A stretch of DNA of 64,000 nt from sequence record NC_017969.1. One strand, written 5' to 3'. Origin of the DNA: Escherichia phage vB_EcoS_AKFV33. Position numbers and translations under genes: made by a program. Position 1 is the first letter of the stretch, and every line of letters starts with the position of its first letter. This document shows, one piece after another, positions 9,395 through 41,727 of the stretch. Under the pieces are notes generated by a model, which did no database searches, was not told the DNA's origin, and worked only from the letters and a program-made list of their open reading frames with translations.

Positions 9395-10096
9395 TCAAAT
9401 TTTCATTTTTTCGATCATAGCTGCAACACAATAGCTTTCAACTAAGGCATCAAATGCAGGATCATGCTTAACCGGATAGATCCCATAACGAATAGTGTCC
9501 ATCTTCTCCATTTTAGCTATTGCCCAGCTAATACCTTCGGTCTCTAGAGCCTTATAACTGTATCCAGCTTGCATCCAGAGATTACGAAGAGATCGAACAT
9601 TGCCCAAATTCCAGAATTTCCACGGAACTACCTCTTCATTGGTTCCAGCATGGAACGTGTTTGCAGAGTAGATAGTCATATCAAACTCTGGGCCATTGCC
9701 ATAATACAAAGCATTTTCACCTAGAGCCAACTCCATAATATTTTGAGCCATAGAGAAGGCAGCATAGTTTGAGCCTAATTTATTAGTGCAATGATGTTTA
9801 CCATTTTGGAAGGCAATCAGTTTTGGATTACGTTCCTTCATGGCTTCCATAATGTGGATAGCAGACGGGCTATTTTTAGCTTGATCCATCCAGAATGCTA
9901 GAGTAGATGCTGTAACTTTGGCACCAGAATTAAGCTGATCCTGCACATCCAAAGTAGCAAATACTAAGTCAGGGTCTTTATCAATCCCATGCATAGCCAC
10001 AAAAGCGAAAGAAGGCATTGCGATATGAGTAGTACCACAATCTCCTGGAGTTCCTAGAGATTCAATATCTAGCATACCAAATGGTTTTACTTTCAT
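9395..10096 (-). CDS. DEDD-family 3'-5' exonuclease
   Basis: Exo I motif MLDIESLG near N-terminus, Exo III-like HDPAFDA near C-terminus. Confidence 0.6.
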   Translation of the reverse strand: MKVKPFGMLDIESLGTPGDCGTTHIAMPSFAFVAMHGIDKDPDLVFATLDVQDQLNSGAKVTASTLAFWMDQAKNSPSAIHIMEAMKERNPKLIAFQNGKHHCTNKLGSNYAAFSMAQNIMELALGENALYYGNGPEFDMTIYSANTFHAGTNEEVVPWKFWNLGNVRSLRNLWMQAGYSYKALETEGISWAIAKMEKMDTIRYGIYPVKHDPAFDALVESYCVAAMIEKMKI

Positions 10097-10124
10097 AACT
10101 TATCCTTTATTGTGTAGAAAACTA

Positions 10125-10361
10125 TTAAAGAGCTGTCTCTTTAATAGACTCCCACTTCTTGGGGTCTTTAAAACCAGGAAGCATATCCTCACTGACATCC
10201 CAGTTCTCTTCCATAGAGAAGTCGGGCCAGTCATTCCAGCTACCTTCCAGCTCTTCATAACAGGTATCCATTACTTCATGACTAGAAAGTCGTATATAAT
10301 CCCTAGCTGACTTATGGGTGCTAGCACGGTTAAAATCATTCTTTGCTACAAAATTACGCAT
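10125..10361 (-). CDS. hypothetical acidic protein (78 aa)
   Basis: ORF track. Confidence 0.45.
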   Translation of the reverse strand: MRNFVAKNDFNRASTHKSARDYIRLSSHEVMDTCYEELEGSWNDWPDFSMEENWDVSEDMLPGFKDPKKWESIKETAL

Positions 10362-10369
10362 AGTTTCTC

Positions 10370-10394
10370 CAAATAAGAGGGGCTTTCGCCCCCT
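10370..10394 (-). terminator. rho-independent terminator
   Basis: GC-rich hairpin GGGGGC-GAAA-GCCCCTC followed by T-rich run on minus strand. Confidence 0.55.
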
Positions 10395-10402
10395 GATTTA
10401 AA

Positions 10403-10618
10403 TCACTTGCCCAGCAGTTTAAGGATATTTTCCATAATAGTTTGGGCAGATTTTTCGCTCTTGTTGGTTTCAGCCAACTTTAAAGCGAGTTCTTCCTGCT
10501 GTTTCTGAATATCCGCAGCAATTTTTTGATCAGCCTCAATACGAGCTTGAAGCTCATCAGTGATAGTGGTAAAGGAAGCAACGATTTCAGTAACGGAACG
10601 TGGTTTCTTAGAGAACAT
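10403..10618 (-). CDS. hypothetical protein (71 aa)
   Basis: ORF track; followed by hairpin terminator. Confidence 0.45.
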   Translation of the reverse strand: MFSKKPRSVTEIVASFTTITDELQARIEADQKIAADIQKQQEELALKLAETNKSEKSAQTIMENILKLLGK

Positions 10619-10681
10619 AAAAATATCCTTGATTAGTTAGAGAATTAGTAGATTGTAGGGGCTTCTGCCCCTATTTATCTA

Positions 10682-11197
10682 TTACTTCGCTTTACGCTTG
10701 CGAGCTGGTTTAGCAGATTTACGAGCAGAATCACCCGTGAACTTAATGCCTACACCGTAACACAGAGCACGAACATTATCTTTACTATACTCTACGCCAA
10801 AGATATTTGGCTTAACAGAACCAAACTGTCCACGAGTATCACGCAATACATCTGCTGTTGGTTTACGCTTCTGGTTAACTGCCTTCTCATAGTCTTTCAT
10901 AGACATACCATTACGAGAGAACAATTCAGCCCCAGCGTTGAAGCTCAGGGAAACTGGGACAGATTTGTGGCCGTAATTTTCTACATACATAACCATTTTG
11001 TAGGATTTACGGGTGGCATTTTTAGCTTTAGGCTTCTTACGAATCGGAGCCGGATTATTCAGTGCTTGCGCAGCCTGAGCATCGGTAGGATGCTTACGCA
11101 GGTGGCGTTCCAGACGAGCTTTGCGATTAGCCTCGGTCTGCGGGAAAGTTTTAACTGCCGGAGCTGCTTGAGTTTTTGCGTTTTTCTGCTTAGCCAT
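10682..11197 (-). CDS. hypothetical basic protein (171 aa), possible nucleic-acid binding
   Basis: Lys/Arg-rich termini. Confidence 0.5.
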   Translation of the reverse strand: MAKQKNAKTQAAPAVKTFPQTEANRKARLERHLRKHPTDAQAAQALNNPAPIRKKPKAKNATRKSYKMVMYVENYGHKSVPVSLSFNAGAELFSRNGMSMKDYEKAVNQKRKPTADVLRDTRGQFGSVKPNIFGVEYSKDNVRALCYGVGIKFTGDSARKSAKPARKRKAK

Positions 11198-11235
11198 TAT
11201 TTGTTTTCCTTTTTGTTTATCAATTTATGAAGTAT

Positions 11236-11264
11236 ATTATACGAGAATTTGAAGCGTTTAGCAA
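11236..11264 (-). promoter_or_regulatory. early promoter (TTGCTA-17-TATAAT)
   Basis: motif plus CTTCATAAATT box. Confidence 0.5.
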
Positions 11265-11280
11265 ATGAATTTTTTAAAAA

Positions 11281-11559
11281 TTATCTACCAACCATCTTAG
11301 CTTGTTCGGCATCTGAGACATATTGATACGCTCCTTTATTATACGCTGGAGCAGTACACATTTTCTTACGCTCAATCTCTTCTTGAGCTTTTCTTTCGCG
11401 TTCAGCTAATTCTTCATCCAGGTAAACTAAACGTTGCTCTGGAGGAGGTGGGAGACGTGTTTCTGGCTCACCAATATTAGCCTTTCTTATTTGACGAGGT
11501 GATTGTGCACGTTTTCTCAATGGCTTAAATCCTAATGAATTTGAGTTATAAATCCGCAT
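11281..11559 (-). CDS. hypothetical protein (92 aa)
   Basis: ORF track. Confidence 0.45.
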   Translation of the reverse strand: MRIYNSNSLGFKPLRKRAQSPRQIRKANIGEPETRLPPPPEQRLVYLDEELAERERKAQEEIERKKMCTAPAYNKGAYQYVSDAEQAKMVGR

Positions 11560-11586
11560 AAAGCCCTCCTCACTTTCAATACGAAT

Positions 11587-11615
11587 ATTATACTAAATTA
11601 GAGGGCTTTAAGCAA
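11587..11615 (-). promoter_or_regulatory. early promoter (TTGCTT-17-TATAAT)
   Basis: motif upstream of rnhA. Confidence 0.5.
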
Positions 11616-11635
11616 GAAAATTTTTAATTTATTTA

Positions 11636-12112
11636 TTACATCTCGGCAAGTTCTTGCTCGGTAATAACTGTGTTACACAATGCATCTACAGCTTCATTAC
11701 CACTAATACCAGAATGACCTTTAACCTTAATAAAGGTAGGGTTAGTATTATGAAAGTTGATATACTGCTGTGTTAATTTAAATGCTTCCTGCCAAAGTTC
11801 TAGATTAAGAGGGACTTCACCATCTGCTTTCTTCCAGCCTTTCCTTTGCCAAGAAAACATCCAACTTTCCATACCATTTTTGCAATAAGCAGAGTCAGTA
11901 TAGATAGCAATTGGTCTATTATCTTTTTTAACAGACCAACGTAGAGCTTCTACAATAGCTGTGAGTTCCATCTCATTATTTGTAGTTTTAGGATTATAAC
12001 CAGATTTAGAACCCAAACGATCGTCGTTATCATCATAGACAATAAAACCCCAAGCACCTGGACCTGGGTTAGACTTACAAGCACCATCTGTGTAAATGTG
12101 GAAAACCGACAT
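11636..12112 (-). CDS. rnhA: ribonuclease H
   Basis: YTDGAC...NPGPGAWG...NNEMELTAI...YTDS...VKGHSGISGNEAVDALC pattern. Confidence 0.8.
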   Translation of the reverse strand: MSVFHIYTDGACKSNPGPGAWGFIVYDDNDDRLGSKSGYNPKTTNNEMELTAIVEALRWSVKKDNRPIAIYTDSAYCKNGMESWMFSWQRKGWKKADGEVPLNLELWQEAFKLTQQYINFHNTNPTFIKVKGHSGISGNEAVDALCNTVITEQELAEM

Positions 12113-19682: not shown

Positions 19683-19711
19683 TTGACATAGTGGTATTTT
19701 TATATTATACT
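19683..19711 (+). promoter_or_regulatory. strong sigma70 promoter (TTGACA-17-TATACT)
   Basis: consensus -35, 17-bp spacer, near-consensus -10, AGGAG RBS before ATG at 19735. Confidence 0.6.
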
Positions 19712-19734: not shown

Positions 19735-20403
19735 ATGCCAAAGAAATTGAGTACGGAAGAAGTCAATAATAGACTTTTAGATAGAGGAATTGTCTTAGTT
19801 GGGGAGTATATAAATGCTAATACTAAGGCTAGTTTTAGATGTTCAGTGGGGCATGTATGGGAAACAAAACCATCAGTGTTACTTAACATGGGATTTGGAT
19901 GTCCATATTGCAGTGGGAAAGCTAAACTAACTCCTGAAGTAATAAACCAGGAATTAAGTAATAAAGGAATACAAATAGTAGGCAAATATGTAAATAATAG
20001 AACTCCGACCCTTTTTAGGTGTGAAAATGGCCATGAGTGGAATACTACTATTAATGCAGTGAAAAATTTAGACAGTAATTGCCCGATATGTAAAAAAGAA
20101 GGCAGGTCTAAAACAAAACTATATGTTATGTATAGTGAATCTTTAGGTACTAAGATTGGTATCTCTAATAAACCGGGAACTAGATTAGGAAAAATTAGCA
20201 GAAATGCTAATATACCAGATCTTAAATTATTTAAAGTATTTGATATCTTAGATTATACTAAGTGCCGTAAAATTGAGAAAGCAGCACATGAGCATTTTAA
20301 AGAATGGAACTGCTATTATAAGGATTTTGATGGTGCTACAGAGTTTTTTGATATTGAACCAGATACAGCAGTAAAATTTATTGAGGAAAATATTAATGAC
20401 TGA
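19735..20403 (+). CDS. GIY-YIG-like (T5orf172-type) protein with duplicated zinc-ribbon modules
   Basis: two repeats of F(R)C..GH.W...CP.C; C-terminal KLYVMYSE...GTKIGISN...R; strong promoter and RBS upstream. Confidence 0.55.
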   Translation: MPKKLSTEEVNNRLLDRGIVLVGEYINANTKASFRCSVGHVWETKPSVLLNMGFGCPYCSGKAKLTPEVINQELSNKGIQIVGKYVNNRTPTLFRCENGHEWNTTINAVKNLDSNCPICKKEGRSKTKLYVMYSESLGTKIGISNKPGTRLGKISRNANIPDLKLFKVFDILDYTKCRKIEKAAHEHFKEWNCYYKDFDGATEFFDIEPDTAVKFIEENIND

Positions 20404-29471: not shown

Positions 29472-29688
29472 AAAATGGGAAACAAGGAAGTTCCCAGTAA
29501 AAGAACGTAAAGTTCCTGTTTACGACACTTCGGAAAAGCTATGTAGGGTGGTACCGCCCAGATTAGCTGGCATCCCTAACATATCCGAATGGTTACTTAA
29601 ACAACGGAAAACCAACGTGTCTCTTCGCATCGGCTTTGAGTTAGATAAAGTCTATGCTGAACTTGCTTCTTTGCTCAAGGAATCGTAA
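29446..29688 (+). CDS. hypothetical protein (80 aa)
   Basis: ORF track. Confidence 0.35.
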   Translation: MLEMTVKNKKWETRKFPVKERKVPVYDTSEKLCRVVPPRLAGIPNISEWLLKQRKTNVSLRIGFELDKVYAELASLLKES

Positions 29689-29696
29689 AAATTTAT

Positions 29697-29725
29697 TTGC
29701 TTTCAGGAAAATTTTTCTGTATAAT
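29697..29725 (+). promoter_or_regulatory. T5 PN25-type early promoter (TTGCTT-17-TATAAT)
   Basis: TTTATTTGCTTTCAGGAAAATTTTTCTGTATAATAGATTCATAAATTTGAGAGAGGAG matches the classic PN25 sequence from memory. Confidence 0.7.
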
Positions 29726-29756
29726 AGATTCATAAATTTGAGAGAGGAGTTTAAAT

Positions 29757-30461
29757 ATGGCCGGTTCTCGCAGAAAGAAACATATCCATGAAATCCCGGA
29801 TGAAGTCTTCAAAAAAGTTATAGAGCATCTAGAGAACGGTGGTACTAAGAAAGCAGCATGTGAAATGCTTGGCGTATCATCCAATCCAACTATGGAAAGG
29901 ATGATTGAAGAATGGCAAGACCGCCAGATTCAAGTTGCCGAAATGAAGAAAAAGAAACGTGGCACACTCATTGAAGGCATTGAGTTAGCTAACGTTATTG
30001 AGCAGTATTTATCTGGTGATTCTTTTGAAGAGATTGCCGATCGTAATTATCGATCTGTAGCAATGGTTAAATCTGTTCTGGAACGCTATGGTGCTTTGCT
30101 TCGTTTGAACGATATTGTAGACCCATTGAATCCTCCAATTATTCCTGATGATGCTGTAGCAGAAGAATTTGCAGTTGGTGAGCTTGTTTGGGTTCCTGGA
30201 TACCAGTGTATCGGTGAAATCAAAAAAGCAATGGATAATCCTGTTGGTTGTTACCGTGTATGGCTTCTATCAGAAGGCAAACAACAGAACGTTCATTATA
30301 TGAATTACGAGCTGGCTTCTGTTAAACATCTGGAAAAGCTAGGGGTTGATGTAAAATCTCTGGGATACAAGTGGACTCGTGAAGAAGTAATTTCGTTGAT
30401 TAACGAAGCTGTTAAGGCTGCCCTGAAACTTGATAAAGAAAAAGGAAAACGCCGTGAGTAA
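29757..30461 (+). CDS. DNA-binding protein with two HTH-like motifs
   Basis: GTKKAACEMLGVSSNPTMERM and SFEEIADRNYRSVAMVKSV segments; follows PN25-type promoter. Confidence 0.55.
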   Translation: MAGSRRKKHIHEIPDEVFKKVIEHLENGGTKKAACEMLGVSSNPTMERMIEEWQDRQIQVAEMKKKKRGTLIEGIELANVIEQYLSGDSFEEIADRNYRSVAMVKSVLERYGALLRLNDIVDPLNPPIIPDDAVAEEFAVGELVWVPGYQCIGEIKKAMDNPVGCYRVWLLSEGKQQNVHYMNYELASVKHLEKLGVDVKSLGYKWTREEVISLINEAVKAALKLDKEKGKRRE

Positions 30462-30705
30462 ACTAACAGATTTGCTTAAAGATGGGGAAGTAAAAACTCT
30501 GTATCGTAGAAGCTGGGATAATGACAATAATGGCTTAGTGTTACTAACTTTAGACGCTGACTCAGATGTAGTTACCCAACATACCTGGGTAGCTGGTAGT
30601 TATCCCTATAGTGAGGTTGTTACGTTAACAGTATGCGAAGCTATTGCTGACGATTGGGAGATTGCCAGCATTGATGATATGCTTGCTGTTGGCCTGGTGG
30701 AGTAA
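30455..30705 (+). CDS. hypothetical acidic protein (~83 aa)
   Basis: GTG start overlapping upstream stop. Confidence 0.4.
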
Positions 30706-30808
30706 CTACAGAAAAATTTCAGTTGCTTAATCCTATAATTCTTGATATAATATTCTCATAGTTTGAAAGAACTATTCTGTTTAATTCTTAATTAAGGAAA
30801 TATAAAAT

Positions 30809-31602: not shown

Positions 31603-31911
31603 ATGAGCGAACAGGTAAATCAAAACTATGAAGGACACGTTGATGACCAGTCCATCATACTTTGGGAGAAGGAGGGGGAACAAGTAAGATTAACAGTATC
31701 TGAATTTCGTGGGAATCTATACATGGGTATTCGTTACTGGCTTCTTGATATTAATGATGAATGGTTTCCAACGAAATCTGGCTTCTCTTTTCCTTACACC
31801 CTAGAAACAACATCACAGCTTTTCTATGCGTTTACACAGATTCTTAGCGAATCTGAGGTTTTACATGAAGTACAGAAACGAGCTGAAGAACTCAAAGCCA
31901 AGAATGCCTAG
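31603..31911 (+). CDS. hypothetical protein (102 aa), possible PC4-like ssDNA-binding fold
   Basis: weak pattern only. Confidence 0.45.
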   Translation: MSEQVNQNYEGHVDDQSIILWEKEGEQVRLTVSEFRGNLYMGIRYWLLDINDEWFPTKSGFSFPYTLETTSQLFYAFTQILSESEVLHEVQKRAEELKAKNA

Positions 31912-31938
31912 TTCTTGGCTTTTTCTTTATAAATGTAC

Positions 31939-31967
31939 TTGCTTTCAACTCAGTTTTGTTATATAAT
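31939..31967 (+). promoter_or_regulatory. early promoter (TTGCTT-17-TATAAT) upstream of ligase N-terminal gene
   Basis: motif plus TTTATATAAATTAACGAGAG leader. Confidence 0.55.
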
Positions 31968-31998
31968 ATTTATATAAATTAACGAGAGATATAAATAA

Positions 31999-32970
31999 AT
32001 GACTAATGTAAAAGAATTTATTAAACGCTGTCAAGAAGCATATTATCAAGGTATGTCTTTAATCTCTGATGAGGAGTATGATTGCCTGGTAAAACGCTTC
32101 CCATTAGAAGAAGAGATCGGACCTAAGGGTGATATTCCACATCTATATCGTATGTATTCTTTACAGAAAGTTTATTATAATCGTGGAGATAAACCCCCAT
32201 TTAACCCATTAGGTCAGGTAGAAACTGATAAGTTAGATGGTTGTGCGATTTCTCTGTTATATATTAATGGCGAATTTGTTCAAGCACTAACTCGTGGTAA
32301 TGGTATTCTAGGGAATGATGTCACAAGCAACGTAAGATTGCTGAACATCCCTCAAAAGATTTCCCAAAAAGTACCTACTCAAATCACTGGTGAAGTTCTA
32401 ATTACAAAAGAAGTAGAAAATAAACGTAACTTTGCCTCTGGTGCTATTAACCTCAAAGATAGCGATGATTTCGTACAACGTATCGGGGAAGGTGGTTTAA
32501 TCTTCGTTGCATACGGTATCCAGTGTTCTGCTGAATCTGTAGGTATTACAGAAACGTATTTAAAAGATATGCTTTGGCTAGAGAATGAGAACTTCTTAAC
32601 AGTTGTTAATGTGCGTTCCTTCTTTAAATGGATTCCGACGGACGGTAAAGTTGTTCGTATTAATGATAACAACAAATTCTTCCGTGAAGGCTGGACTAAT
32701 AAATTCCCTCGTGGAGCATTCGCTATTAAAGAGGATGAAGAAGGCGAGATTACAACTCTTACTAAAGTTGAATGGCAGGTAGGAGCTTCTGGTAAAGTAA
32801 CTCCAGTTGGTTATTTCGAACCGGTAATTATTGATGATGCTACAATTGTTAAAGCGACTCTTAATAACGTTGATTATATTAACTCTCTTGATCTAGAGAT
32901 CGGTTGCCAGATTCGAGTGATTCGTGCTGGTGGTGTAATCCCGTGCATAGTAGAGCGAGTATATGATTAA
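31999..32970 (+). CDS. ligA: NAD-dependent DNA ligase, N-terminal (adenylation/OB) half
   Basis: KxDG motif ETDKLDGCAIS and LTRGNGILGNDVT; ORF ends before zinc finger/HhH/BRCT. Confidence 0.8.
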   Translation: MTNVKEFIKRCQEAYYQGMSLISDEEYDCLVKRFPLEEEIGPKGDIPHLYRMYSLQKVYYNRGDKPPFNPLGQVETDKLDGCAISLLYINGEFVQALTRGNGILGNDVTSNVRLLNIPQKISQKVPTQITGEVLITKEVENKRNFASGAINLKDSDDFVQRIGEGGLIFVAYGIQCSAESVGITETYLKDMLWLENENFLTVVNVRSFFKWIPTDGKVVRINDNNKFFREGWTNKFPRGAFAIKEDEEGEITTLTKVEWQVGASGKVTPVGYFEPVIIDDATIVKATLNNVDYINSLDLEIGCQIRVIRAGGVIPCIVERVYD

Positions 32971-33020
32971 TACATAACCCTTTGCTACCCATCTACCATA
33001 TAGGAATTATAAAGTGGTTA

Positions 33021-33049
33021 TTGACATTTTCGCCGCTTAGGTATATACT
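33021..33049 (+). promoter_or_regulatory. sigma70 promoter (TTGACA-17-TATACT) between the ligase halves
   Basis: consensus -35 and spacing. Confidence 0.5.
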
Positions 33050-33113
33050 ATTATCATTCAGTTGAGGGATAGAAAGTTATGGCGAGGGTAAGCAAAGTTA
33101 GTTAAAATTGTAG

Positions 33114-33142
33114 TTGCTAAATGCTTAAATACTTGCTATAAT
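33114..33142 (+). promoter_or_regulatory. early promoter (TTGCTA-17-TATAAT) upstream of ligase C-terminal gene
   Basis: motif plus TTTATATAAATTGATAAGG leader. Confidence 0.55.
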
Positions 33143-33172
33143 ATTTATATAAATTGATAAGGAAGAAATTTG

Positions 33173-33943
33173 ATGAAAATCGAAATTCCAACACAATGTC
33201 CCTCTTGTGGTTCTAAGCTAGATCTTGTCAACGGACAATTATTCTGTCGGAATAAGTCCAACTGTCCAGCGCAATCAAGTAAGTTAATTGAGAACTTCTG
33301 TACAAAAATGAAGTTAAAGGGCTTTGGTCCAAAAACTATTGAGAAGCTGGAGCTGACGAAGATTTCAGAACTATTTTACCTAACCGAAGAAGATTTGGTT
33401 AGAGCCGTGGGTAGCAAGGTTGCCGCTAAGTTAATTAGCGAATTAAATACTAAAGTTCGCGGAGACATTGACTTTGGTTCAGTTCTCGGTTCTTTAGGAA
33501 TCCCTCTAATTGGAGAGGTTGCAGCAAAGAAATTATCCCAAAATTGCACTAGCTTCCACGATGTGAAGGCTGACGGCAAGGCTGGAGAAAATTATAAAGC
33601 CTGGCTAAATTCCCCACAGGGCAAGGATGTTATCGAATTACCGTGGAAATTCTCAACTGGTGCTAAAACTAAAACCGTCGTTACTGATGATTTAGTTGCC
33701 CAGCCAAATGGAATCGCGGTATGTATTACCGGATCTTTGCAAGATTTTGCAAATCGAACGGATGCAACAAACTATTTAGAAGGTCTAGGATACACGGTTA
33801 AGAAATCCGTTACCAAAGACGTAAAATACCTGATCTGTGAGGATGAATCAAAACGTTCTTCCTCATCTTATAAGAAAGCCGAAACGAATGGGATAGAAAT
33901 CCTGTCGATTAAAGAACTATTGGAGAAAAATAATAATGTCTAA
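33173..33943 (+). CDS. ligA: NAD-dependent DNA ligase, C-terminal (zinc finger-HhH-BRCT) half
   Basis: CPSCGS...C...C zinc finger, HhH-like GIPLIGEVAAKKL, BRCT-like tail. Confidence 0.8.
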   Translation: MKIEIPTQCPSCGSKLDLVNGQLFCRNKSNCPAQSSKLIENFCTKMKLKGFGPKTIEKLELTKISELFYLTEEDLVRAVGSKVAAKLISELNTKVRGDIDFGSVLGSLGIPLIGEVAAKKLSQNCTSFHDVKADGKAGENYKAWLNSPQGKDVIELPWKFSTGAKTKTVVTDDLVAQPNGIAVCITGSLQDFANRTDATNYLEGLGYTVKKSVTKDVKYLICEDESKRSSSSYKKAETNGIEILSIKELLEKNNNV

Positions 33944-34703
33944 ACTGAACTGGAACGTAGAAGGTGTAACCGAGTCTCTGAAAGCAAAAGCCACTGCTCT
34001 GGGTGTTTCTGTAATCTCTCAAGAACAAGTAGCCGCTATCGCTGCTGAACTGGCTGCTGAAACTGGCAAAGATGTTACCGCTCGCTCTGTTGGCTCTAAA
34101 CTGCGTAAAGAAGGTTTTGAAGTACAGAAAGCTAACGAAGTACAGAAATCCCCGTGGACTCCTGAGCAGGAAGCTGAACTGGTTGATTTCCTGAACGCTC
34201 ATGCTGGTCAGTATACCTATGCTGAAATCGCTGCTGCTGTAGCTGGTGGTCAGTTCGGTGCTAAGCAGGTACAGGGTAAGATTCTGAGCCTGGAAATGAC
34301 CGCTTCTGTTAAGCCAACCGAAAAAGCTGCTGCTGTTCGTTCCTTCACTCCGGATGAAGAAACTGATTTTGTTAATCAGGTTGTTGCTGGCGCTACTATT
34401 GAAGCTATCGCTGCTCACTTCGGTCGTAATATCAAGCAGATCCGTGGTAAAGCTCTGAGTTTGCTTCGTGAAGGTCGTATCGCTGCTATGCCGGTACAGG
34501 AAACTTCAAGTGCTAAAACTCGTGAAGATCTGTTAGAAGGTCTGGATCTGGTTAACATGACTGTTGCTGAGATCGCTGAGAAAACTGGTAAGTCTGAGCG
34601 CGGTGTTAAATCTATGCTGTCTCGTCGTGGTCTGGTTGCTAAGGACTATGATGGTGCCGCTAAGCGTGCTAAACTGGATGCAAAAGCTGCGGCTGCTGAA
34701 TAA
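33936..34703 (+). CDS. protein with four tandem HTH-like repeats, host-like codon usage
   Basis: four ~50-aa repeats; Ala-rich; GCT/CTG/CGT codon bias. Confidence 0.55.
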   Translation: MSKLNWNVEGVTESLKAKATALGVSVISQEQVAAIAAELAAETGKDVTARSVGSKLRKEGFEVQKANEVQKSPWTPEQEAELVDFLNAHAGQYTYAEIAAAVAGGQFGAKQVQGKILSLEMTASVKPTEKAAAVRSFTPDEETDFVNQVVAGATIEAIAAHFGRNIKQIRGKALSLLREGRIAAMPVQETSSAKTREDLLEGLDLVNMTVAEIAEKTGKSERGVKSMLSRRGLVAKDYDGAAKRAKLDAKAAAAE

Positions 34704-40265: not shown

Positions 40266-41614
40266 AGGTTGTTATATCTAATAAAGCCTATTTCAAGCCC
40301 GATGATGAACTTTGGGATTATTGTAGTAAGCAAACCACTTATCACATTGAGACAATGACTAGTAAATACCCTATTATGTATAAGAATAGTGGTGTTGTTG
40401 CTAAAGAGATTAAGTGGATTCCTATCACGCGTCTGGATTTACTAGATGCTAAAGGAGTAAAATACGAATTAGTCGATAAACGCACATTAGCTCCGGTAGA
40501 TATACCAAAACCTAAGTTCAAGCTGCGCGAAGAAGATCAGCTTCCAATATACGAAGAATGCGATGATACCTGTATTATTAATGGTAAGCCTGGATTTGGT
40601 AAAACTATCCTAGCCCTTGCACTTGCGTATAAATTTGGCCAGAAAACTTTGGTAATTTGTACCAACACATCTATTCGTGAAATGTGGGCGGCAGAAGTTC
40701 GTAAATGGTTTGGGTTTGAACCAGGTATCATAGGTTCTGGGAAATACAATATTGATCCACCAATTGTGGTCAGTAATATTCAAACAGTGAATAAACATGC
40801 GAATAATCTTTCTAAAGTATTCGGTACTGTTATAGTTGATGAAGTTCACCATTGTGTGGCTACAACTTTCACTAACTTCCTAGAAATATCATGTGCTCGC
40901 TATAAGATCGGACTATCTGGAACATTAAAACGGAAAGATGGTCTACAAGTCATGTTCAAAGATTTCTTTGGATATAAGATCTTTAGCCCACCGGTTAATA
41001 ATACTATTGCTCCTACAATCCATAGGTACTCCGTGCCTGTTGAGCTATCAGGAAACCAAAACGTACCGTGGGCATTACGTGCTAATGATGTGTATAATCA
41101 TCCTGAATATAGGGAGACTATTATAAATCTAGCACATTTATATGTGAATATGGGGCATAAAGTACTCATTGTAAGTGACAGAACAGAGTTAATCCAAACA
41201 GTACTAGAAGCTCTTGCACAGCGTGGTGTTACAACATATGAAATTATAGGGGCAACTCACTTAGATGACCGATTAAAAATTCAGGAAGATATAGCAAAAG
41301 GTGGACCTTGTGTACTTGCAGCCGCTCAAAGTATCTTCTCTGAGGGTATTTCCCTTAATGAATTATCTTGCTTAATAATGGGCAGTCTCATTAATAATGA
41401 GTCTCTCATTGAACAGCTCGCAGGCCGTGTTCAACGTATTGTCGATGGTAAACTAGACCCTATTGTTGTGGATCTAATTATGAAAGGCGGCACTGGACTA
41501 AGACAGGCTTCTGGACGTATGGCAGTATATCGTAACAACGGGTGGAAAACTATTACCATGACTCCTGAGAAAGCAGTTCAATTAGCTAAAATTGCATTTG
41601 GCAACAGCTCATAA
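40262..41614 (+). CDS. SF2 ATP-dependent DNA helicase
   Basis: Walker A GKPGFGKT, DEVHH box. Confidence 0.8.
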   Translation: MKVVISNKAYFKPDDELWDYCSKQTTYHIETMTSKYPIMYKNSGVVAKEIKWIPITRLDLLDAKGVKYELVDKRTLAPVDIPKPKFKLREEDQLPIYEECDDTCIINGKPGFGKTILALALAYKFGQKTLVICTNTSIREMWAAEVRKWFGFEPGIIGSGKYNIDPPIVVSNIQTVNKHANNLSKVFGTVIVDEVHHCVATTFTNFLEISCARYKIGLSGTLKRKDGLQVMFKDFFGYKIFSPPVNNTIAPTIHRYSVPVELSGNQNVPWALRANDVYNHPEYRETIINLAHLYVNMGHKVLIVSDRTELIQTVLEALAQRGVTTYEIIGATHLDDRLKIQEDIAKGGPCVLAAAQSIFSEGISLNELSCLIMGSLINNESLIEQLAGRVQRIVDGKLDPIVVDLIMKGGTGLRQASGRMAVYRNNGWKTITMTPEKAVQLAKIAFGNSS

Positions 41615-41626
41615 ATGATGTATAAT
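41598..41626 (+). promoter_or_regulatory. early promoter (TTGGCA-17-TATAAT) overlapping helicase 3' end
   Basis: motif plus ATACATAAATTTGAGAGAG leader. Confidence 0.45.
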
Positions 41627-41697: not shown

Positions 41698-41727
41698 TTG
41701 CTAAATTCTCTCGAAATCTAGTATAAT
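41698..41727 (+). promoter_or_regulatory. early promoter (TTGCTA-18-TATAAT), tandem to previous
   Basis: motif plus ATACATAAATTCGAGGAG leader. Confidence 0.5.

Follow-up and report, generated by a model that had tools for sequence, protein, structure and literature searches.

The window, i.e. the whole 64,000-nt stretch of DNA from Escherichia phage vB_EcoS_AKFV33 (accession no. NC_017969.1) that was analysed, was found to contain an NAD-dependent DNA ligase encoded by two separate genes, ligA and ligB (Table 1). Two ligase ORFs with a spacer of about 200 nt between them had been proposed from the DNA letters alone (hereafter the original prediction), and this layout was confirmed, the spacer being 202 nt long. 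The region showed approximately 98% nucleotide identity to Tequintavirus genomes; 440 phage records matched, 429 of them covering at least 80% of the region, and judged from these matches the window is that of a T5-like phage (Tequintavirus).

Table 1. Features of the ligA-ligB locus (positions refer to the window).
Feature	Position	Strand	Description
PC4-like gene	31603-31911		Upstream of ligA
Terminator-like hairpin and T-run	31894-31922	+	12-bp stem followed by TTCTTTAT; closes the upstream transcription unit
ligA promoter, T5 early type	31939-31967	+	TTGCTT-17-TATAAT, then ATTTAT
[quoted passage not shown]
ligA-ligB spacer	32971-33172	+	202 nt; no coding capacity, Rfam match or conserved RNA structure
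Promoter P-K28b of T5	33001-33075	+	Hexamers TTGACA (33021-33026) and TATACT (33044-33049)
Promoter P-K28a of T5	33094-33168	+	Hexamers TTGCTA (33114-33119) and TATAAT (33137-33142)
ligB, NAD-dependent DNA ligase subunit B	33173-33943	+	256 aa; Cys4 zinc finger, HhH, BRCT
D5-like DNA-binding protein/putative transcription factor (T5p116)	33936-34703	+	ATG overlaps the ligB stop, 8 nt

The ligA ORF contained the Pfam domains DNA_ligase_aden (PF01653; 7.6e-24) and DNA_ligase_OB (PF03120; 3.8e-22). The adenylation motif KLDG lies at LigA residues 78-81 (nt 32230-32241), and K78-L-D-G81 was unchanged across eight diverse LigA homologues, so that the KxDG motif by which NAD-dependent ligases are recognized is present. 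In NAD-dependent ligases, the N-terminal domain Ia recognizes NMN and thereby sets the specificity for NAD+. LigA residues 15-28 (YYQGMSLISDEEYD) resemble the Ia motif of LigA; the HMMER alignment of this part to solved LigA was not significant, and Y15, Y16, E25 and D28 were invariant in eight diverse homologues. In ligB, the four zinc-finger cysteines (C9/C12/C25/C31; pattern CPSCG...C(25)RN...C(31)P) were shown to be invariant in diverse relatives, and the Pfam search matched HHH_2 (HhH) and BRCT domains. Read across both ORFs, the order OB, Cys4 zinc finger, HhH and BRCT is that of NAD-dependent ligases. A Shine-Dalgarno sequence (AAGGAAG, 33158-33164) precedes ligB, and an in-frame TTG is found at 33170, just before the ATG. 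Because the ATG of the D5-like gene lies within the end of ligB, this gene is predicted to be co-transcribed with ligB and is probably translationally coupled with it. The order PC4-like gene, ligA, gap, ligB, D5-like gene and dnaB is the one that marks a T5-type two-subunit ligase locus, and the sizes of the genes (~320 aa and ~250 aa) and their division in the OB/zinc-finger linker are likewise those of the T5-type split.

The phage T5 record (accession no. AY692264) contains ligA (T5p114), promoter P-K28b, promoter P-K28a and ligB (T5p115) in the same order as the window. The T5 ligase genes (AAU05253/AAU05254) were the same genes, in the same order and with a 202-nt spacer differing by 1 nt. 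In the T5 record, ligB begins with the TTG codon that immediately precedes the ATG taken as the start here, and T5 ligB is approximately 3 codons longer internally; otherwise nothing material separates T5 from the window. In relatives, ligA and ligB are annotated as subunits A and B of an NAD-dependent DNA ligase, and the same naming is used in publications on phages T5 and Stitch. The original prediction had pointed to a split ligase in T5, and rightly so, as AY692264 contains ligA (subunit A) and ligB (subunit B); both the split ligase and the two spacer promoters are already known, being annotated in the T5 reference genome. Besides, LigA and LigB were 94-100% identical among Tequintavirus/Epseptimavirus loci, and the C-terminus of A (GGVIPxIV...) and the N-terminus of B (MKIxIPxxCPxCG) were common to relatives.

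Comparison with one-chain and two-chain ligases

An alignment to E. coli LigA had been proposed as a check of the split point. In this alignment (2OWO), residues 214-320 of A corresponded to residues 284-390 and residues 3-122 of B to residues 402-529, and the phage halves covered 2OWO up to approximately residue 393 and from approximately residue 400 onward; the halves also aligned consecutively to 1DGS. Since the halves are consecutive segments of LigA, the cut falls within the short linker joining the OB fold to the zinc finger, and all domains are retained. The domains of the E. coli enzyme are arranged in the same way (Ia, NTase, OB, Zn, HhH, BRCT), and the KxDG motif and the four zinc cysteines are conserved, but it is one chain of 671 aa, whereas the phage enzyme comprises 579 aa in total, has shorter NTase and HhH regions and is divided between OB and Zn.

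A stop codon within a normally single gene could also result from a sequencing or assembly error or from a recent pseudogenising mutation, and nothing more than the stop codon speaks for this. The same stop, spacer and restart were found throughout the 440 phage records (429 covering at least 80%) and in 133 related loci, and the catalytic and zinc-binding residues were kept in both halves. By this conservation an error or a pseudogene is already refuted, and its chance is practically nil.

LigA was found to match chain A (339 aa, 'DNA ligase (NAD(+))'; E = 5e-103) and LigB chain B (248 aa, 'DNA ligase subunit B'; E = 1.4e-81) of PDB entries 9HU3/9I5I. Chain B, which in 9HU3 begins at the same MKI residues as the ligB product, showed 100% identity to ligB of the T5-like Providencia phages PR1 and PSTCR5. 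The ligase of Providencia phage vB_PreS_PR1/PSTCR5 has orthologous A and B chains, which end at the same OB/zinc-finger junction, and showed approximately 54-56% identity to the ligase of the window (tblastn); the two phages are of the same family. The spacer is 192 nt in the Providencia phages and has the same tandem promoter layout, with diverged sequence between the hexamers. A literature search yielded no publication on the 9HU3 structure or on the biochemistry of the split ligase, and a sequence search of the literature gave no match. The occurrence of both orthologous chains together in 9HU3/9I5I indirectly supports the proposal that the enzyme is made from two polypeptides, and LigA and LigB most likely form a non-covalent heterodimer acting as one nick-sealing enzyme of the LigA type.

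Inteins, group I introns and translational bypass of the T4 gene 60 kind are known to interrupt some phage genes, and two ORFs in different frames, 202 nt apart, would agree with rejoining of the ligase by one of these routes. However, the domains fill the ORFs: in LigA the OB domain extends to residue 321 of 323, and in LigB the zinc finger starts from residue 9, so that intein halves would find no space. The Pfam search of either ORF detected no intein domain. The spacer contained neither an Rfam intron match nor a conserved RNA structure. Besides, the gap length in relatives varies between 56 nt and 5.9 kb, the gaps contain unrelated genes, and the PDB entry contains two separate chains with ends corresponding to the ORF ends. 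Rejoining is effectively refuted, with a very slight chance at best.

Promoters and other content of the spacer

The two sigma70-type promoters of the original prediction were recovered by a promoter scan, which returned precisely 33021-33049 (P-K28b core, TTGACA-17-TATACT, 11/12) and 33114-33142 (P-K28a core, TTGCTA-17-TATAAT with a TG-extended -10, 10/12), and both correspond to annotated T5 promoters. The window sequences 33001-33075 and 33094-33168 matched the T5 features at 2812-2886 and 2905-2979 of the T5 locus (L149) except for one substitution; this is the single spacer substitution relative to T5, located at 33002 and outside the hexamers of both promoters. The ligA promoter falls within a 'putative promoter' feature of AY692264 (L149 1738-1805, corresponding to window 31927-31994). 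The original work behind the T5 promoter annotation is reportedly that of Gentz and Bujard from 1985.

The 3-kb region contained six promoter-like sites compared to 6.8 in shuffles, and since this count is not above expectation, the promoter pattern alone is not significant. The spacer promoters are considered significant because their hexamers are conserved amid divergence and are identical to annotated T5 promoters. Among 21 distinct spacers (189-225 nt), both hexamer pairs persisted while the intervening sequence diverged. Both pairs were kept where the LigA half was only 52-72% identical and the surrounding sequence had diverged, and the P-K28b hexamers were conserved down to 46-52% LigA identity. 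From the T5 annotation and this conservation, P-K28b and P-K28a are predicted to be active promoters for the sigma70 RNA polymerase of E. coli.

The two promoters are of different types. T5 early promoters form a class with an ATATT signature (PMC7472727). P-K28a has the flanks of the T5 early type, with AAAATT upstream and ATTTAT downstream, and approximately 25 other promoters in the window were found to carry the early signature (TTGCTx, upstream AAAATT, and TATAAT with an ATATT-like sequence). The P-K28b type (TTGACA-17-TATACT) differs from the T5 early class. P-K28b and the promoter PJ5 have GTTATTGACA and TATACT in common. What we take to be the PJ5 sequence maps at 100% identity to the late (tail-gene) region of T5. 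PJ5 has been described as a late promoter (PMC7472727).

No terminator was detected between ligA and the spacer promoters, and because of this, ligA transcripts may read through toward ligB, in which case the two units would not be fully separate.

The spacer was also searched for RNA and coding content. An Rfam search at permissive threshold found nothing in the spacer. Folded on its own, the P-K28b leader gave a good structure (z = -3.0); an RNA element was rejected, as the consensus structure of six diverged spacers was essentially nil (-0.66 kcal/mol). A small ORF or pseudogene was rejected as well, as blastx against the gap ORFs of relatives gave chance matches only, and a 7-codon ATG ORF in the spacer was not conserved. 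Two-piece megablast matches had suggested an insertion in the spacer; the extra 272 nt was shown to be located upstream of ligA instead.

The split and the gap among relatives

A total of 146 related loci were gathered from phage records, IMG/VR and metagenomes. The ligase was split in 133 of the 146, always at the OB/zinc-finger junction and with gaps of 56-2529 nt (median 202 nt), and these 133 loci include every relative above approximately 40% identity. In a large marine clade, ten unrelated genes separate the halves, over a distance of 5.9 kb. A and B co-occurred throughout the clade; one apparent B half without an A half (L059) was rejected as an exception, as relatives have A 5.9 kb upstream. 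With a single exception among the loci having both genes, the distance from ligB to the D5-like gene was between -23 and +32 nt.

The gap inserts differed by lineage and were mutually non-homologous except for a Vibrio-phage pair, and a common ancestry of the intervening ORFs was rejected on this ground. By Pfam, only a GIY-YIG endonuclease and a NADAR protein were identified among the gap ORFs of relatives. The NADAR protein gene is present in the gap of Proteus phages, a gene annotated as DprA-like in the gap of Vibrio phages, and several orphan ORFs are also among the gap contents. The GIY-YIG ORF (Pfam 1.1e-5) was found between the ligA stop and P-K28b in one locus (L034) with a LigA 94% identical to that of the window, and in the last ~190 nt of ligA of this locus the nucleotide identity falls from approximately 97% to approximately 70%.

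Genes split by homing endonucleases are known as 'genes in pieces', e.g. nrdA/mobE of Aeromonas phage Aeh1 and the topoisomerase genes 39/60 of T4. The ligase resembles these as an enzyme divided at a domain boundary into two genes whose products would reassemble, and the endonuclease in the gap of L034, together with the drop in identity at the end of its ligA and the unrelated inserts at the same place in other relatives, would agree with fission by a homing endonuclease gene since lost, the gap having no regulatory purpose. Unlike in those examples, neither an endonuclease gene nor a remnant was found in the spacer of the window, L034 being the only relative with one, and the inserts of different lineages are not homologous. 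What is conserved in the gap is the promoter, the sole element present everywhere, and this speaks for a gap that is kept for a function. A gap without regulatory purpose is accordingly considered rather unlikely, although it keeps a real share of the probability; a lost endonuclease may explain the origin of the split and is compatible with the main explanation given below.

A promoter of at least 10/12 was found before ligB in 91% of 79 distinct upstream regions, 32 of which reached 12/12; these regions share ancestry, and the 91% does not count independent events. Of 947 control windows taken from coding sequence of these loci, 1.3% reached 10/12, and such a promoter site was found in only 42% of the ligA upstream regions. 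The median distance from the end of the -10 element to the ligB start was 32 nt, and in gaps of 56-58 nt a consensus promoter takes up nearly all the space.

One distant T5-like metagenome locus (L009; JGI metagenome 3300024581) contained a fused ligase of 573 aa (P0085, 10001-11722) of the same compact type, with 36% identity over 97% of A+B. This locus showed the synteny of T5, with a D5 homologue (43% identity) directly behind the ligase and then DnaB, primase, PolA and Mre11/Rad50. Where the window has a stop, a spacer and a start, L009 has a 15-residue linker (ENKPNSRTVVNLCNS). No promoter-like site scored at its OB/zinc-finger junction on the coding strand; tandem promoter-like sites were found upstream of the whole operon instead. 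Parsimony based on this single fused relative would make L009 the ancestral fused state and the split a fission, as opposed to L009 being a later fusion.

A two-chain ligase at a predicted transcription-unit boundary

We propose, with a probability of about 0.9, that the locus encodes a T5-like two-polypeptide ligase and that the gap between its genes is a transcription-unit boundary with tandem promoters. LigA would supply the adenylation site, the OB fold and, through domain Ia, the recognition of NAD+, and LigB would add the zinc finger, the BRCT domain and the HhH part that clamps the DNA; the two would associate non-covalently and seal nicks, as indicated by the structure for the orthologue and assumed here by homology. 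In this arrangement ligA would be the last gene of a unit under its own early-type promoter, behind a terminator, and P-K28b and P-K28a would open a new unit comprising ligB, the D5-like gene, dnaB, primase and polymerase, an operon extent predicted from gene order and overlaps. The 202-nt gap is most likely such a boundary and not debris. The fission probably arose when an insertion interrupted an originally undivided gene, with a homing endonuclease as a plausible agent, and it was likely kept by selection for a strong promoter before the replication operon, at a site that tolerates inserts.

The original prediction had left open whether the enzyme assembles from two chains or the halves are expressed differently. 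Different expression is plausible, ligB having tandem promoters and a probable coupling to the D5-like gene and ligA its own promoter behind a terminator. Because of the possible read-through from ligA, the two promoters and the better Shine-Dalgarno sequence of ligB, the amount of LigB is predicted to equal or exceed that of LigA.

The original prediction also asked whether the C-terminal half has an independent role. LigB might act beyond the ligase clamp, as a nick- or DNA-binding BRCT scaffold together with the D5-like protein or the replisome, and because its two promoters are of different types, its schedule could differ from that of LigA. Such a role would agree with the position of ligB, which in every case comes first after a promoter and is closely joined to the D5-like gene, not to ligA, with the separation of ligA and ligB by up to 5.9 kb, and with a P-K28b that is unlike the T5 early class and resembles the late PJ5 (TTGACA/TATACT). 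However, no locus was found with B and demonstrably without A, L059 being explained by an A half 5.9 kb upstream; A and B occur together throughout the clade and are both present in the solved structure. No observation made here speaks for a separate function of LigB, and we regard such a function as improbable. Slightly less probable still is its specific form, in which ligB and the D5-like gene would be under the early P-K28a and a putative late P-K28b, and LigB would be present in late excess as a nick- or DNA-binding scaffold. If this were true, LigB would act alone, e.g. at the site-specific nicks of the T5 genome, or with the D5-like protein.

The weight of the locus as a discovery is small, since the T5 annotation exists and the structure of an orthologous two-chain enzyme has been solved. 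The comparative findings, i.e. the promoter at the junction, the variable insert site (0 to 5.9 kb) and the fused relative, add incremental context. Taken together, they would make a clear case from nature of a split gene that is kept at the border between two transcription units, which may be of interest to phage specialists.

Early-type promoters in the window

The early layout of T5 (AAAATT, TTGCTx, 17 nt, TATAAT) was found to be common to approximately 25 promoters in the window. Three matches from the window promoter scan are presumably known T5 promoters: the plus-strand match is taken to be PN25, the promoter used in the pQE expression vectors, and the two minus-strand matches PH207 and PD/E20 (Table). 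In the T5 record, P-N26 is annotated one gene beyond the site that we assign to PN25. Besides P-K28b, one of the tandem promoters in the spacer between ligA and ligB (the genes for the two halves of the split NAD-dependent DNA ligase), only one other promoter-like site of the TTGACA-17-TATACT type was present in the window, and it was located at the junction from which the early gene blocks diverge leftward and rightward. Two further early-type promoter-like sites were also arranged in tandem, and tandem promoters are thus not exclusive to the ligase gap.

Table. Coordinates of promoter matches, flanking genes and ligase-associated features in the window and in related loci.
Feature	Location	Coordinates	Strand	Details
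AAAAATTTATTTGCTTTCAGGAAAATTTTTCTGTATAATAGATTCATAAATTTGAGAGAGGAGTTTAAATATG	Window	29686-29750	+	5' of ORF 29757-30461; presumably PN25
P-N26	Window	~30703-30777		
Promoter match	Window	11264	-	TTGCTA...TATAATATACTTCA; presumably PH207
Promoter match	Window	58431	-	TTGATA...TATAATATTGTTAT; presumably PD/E20
TTGACA-17-TATACT site	Window	19683-19711	+	5' of ORF 19735-20403
Tandem promoter-like pair	Window	41598-41626 and 41698-41727	+	100 nt apart
Stretch 5' of ligA, 273-nt ORF absent	Window	~31912-31998		
D5-like gene	Window	33936-34703		
273-nt hypothetical ORF	L001 (T5_ev212)	1599-1871		
GIY-YIG endonuclease gene	L034 (IMGVR_UViG_2974606035)	3184-3840		
NADAR-domain gene	L053 (IMGVR_UViG_2974547928)	3153-3809		Pfam 1.8e-31
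Ten-gene cassette	L147/L148	4119-9898		5.9 kb
Single-chain ligase	L009 (JGI 3300024581, Ga0265365_1000315)	10001-11722		573 aa

Genes flanking the ligase halves

T5_ev212 and many other relatives contain a 273-nt hypothetical ORF immediately 5' of ligA that is missing from the window, which explains why the window matched relatives in two pieces by megablast. On the other side, the D5-like gene, located just 3' of ligB, showed a G+C content of 47.5% compared to 37-40% in the two ligase genes and 39% in the whole window, possibly because the codons of an abundant protein have been optimised or because the gene has a different origin. The genetic name D5 is assigned inconsistently among T5 records, either to the 255-aa DNA-binding protein or to dnaB.

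Organization of the ligase genes in relatives

A compact T5-type ligase was found as a natural single chain on one T5-syntenic metagenome contig (L009). In other relatives, additional genes were found between the halves. In a close relative (L034), the ligA stop is separated from P-K28b by a free-standing gene for a GIY-YIG homing endonuclease, and identity in the final ~190 nt of ligA in this relative declines from about 97% to about 70%, a pattern resembling a co-conversion tract or an immunity tract. Some Proteus T5-like phages, including L053, carry a gene encoding a NADAR-domain protein in the gap; an NAD/ADP-ribose-related domain thus adjoins an NAD-dependent ligase in these phages.

In four environmental loci (L097, L128, L129, and L141) the ligA half was present and no ligB half was found within 3 kb downstream; these loci probably have a larger gap, as in L147. 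In L147 and L148, marine metagenome contigs from an abundant marine T5-like clade, the halves are separated by a cassette with genes including radical SAM/SPASM, carbamoyltransferase, Asp/Arg hydroxylase-like and cytidylyltransferase genes, which may constitute a DNA- or sugar-modification module.
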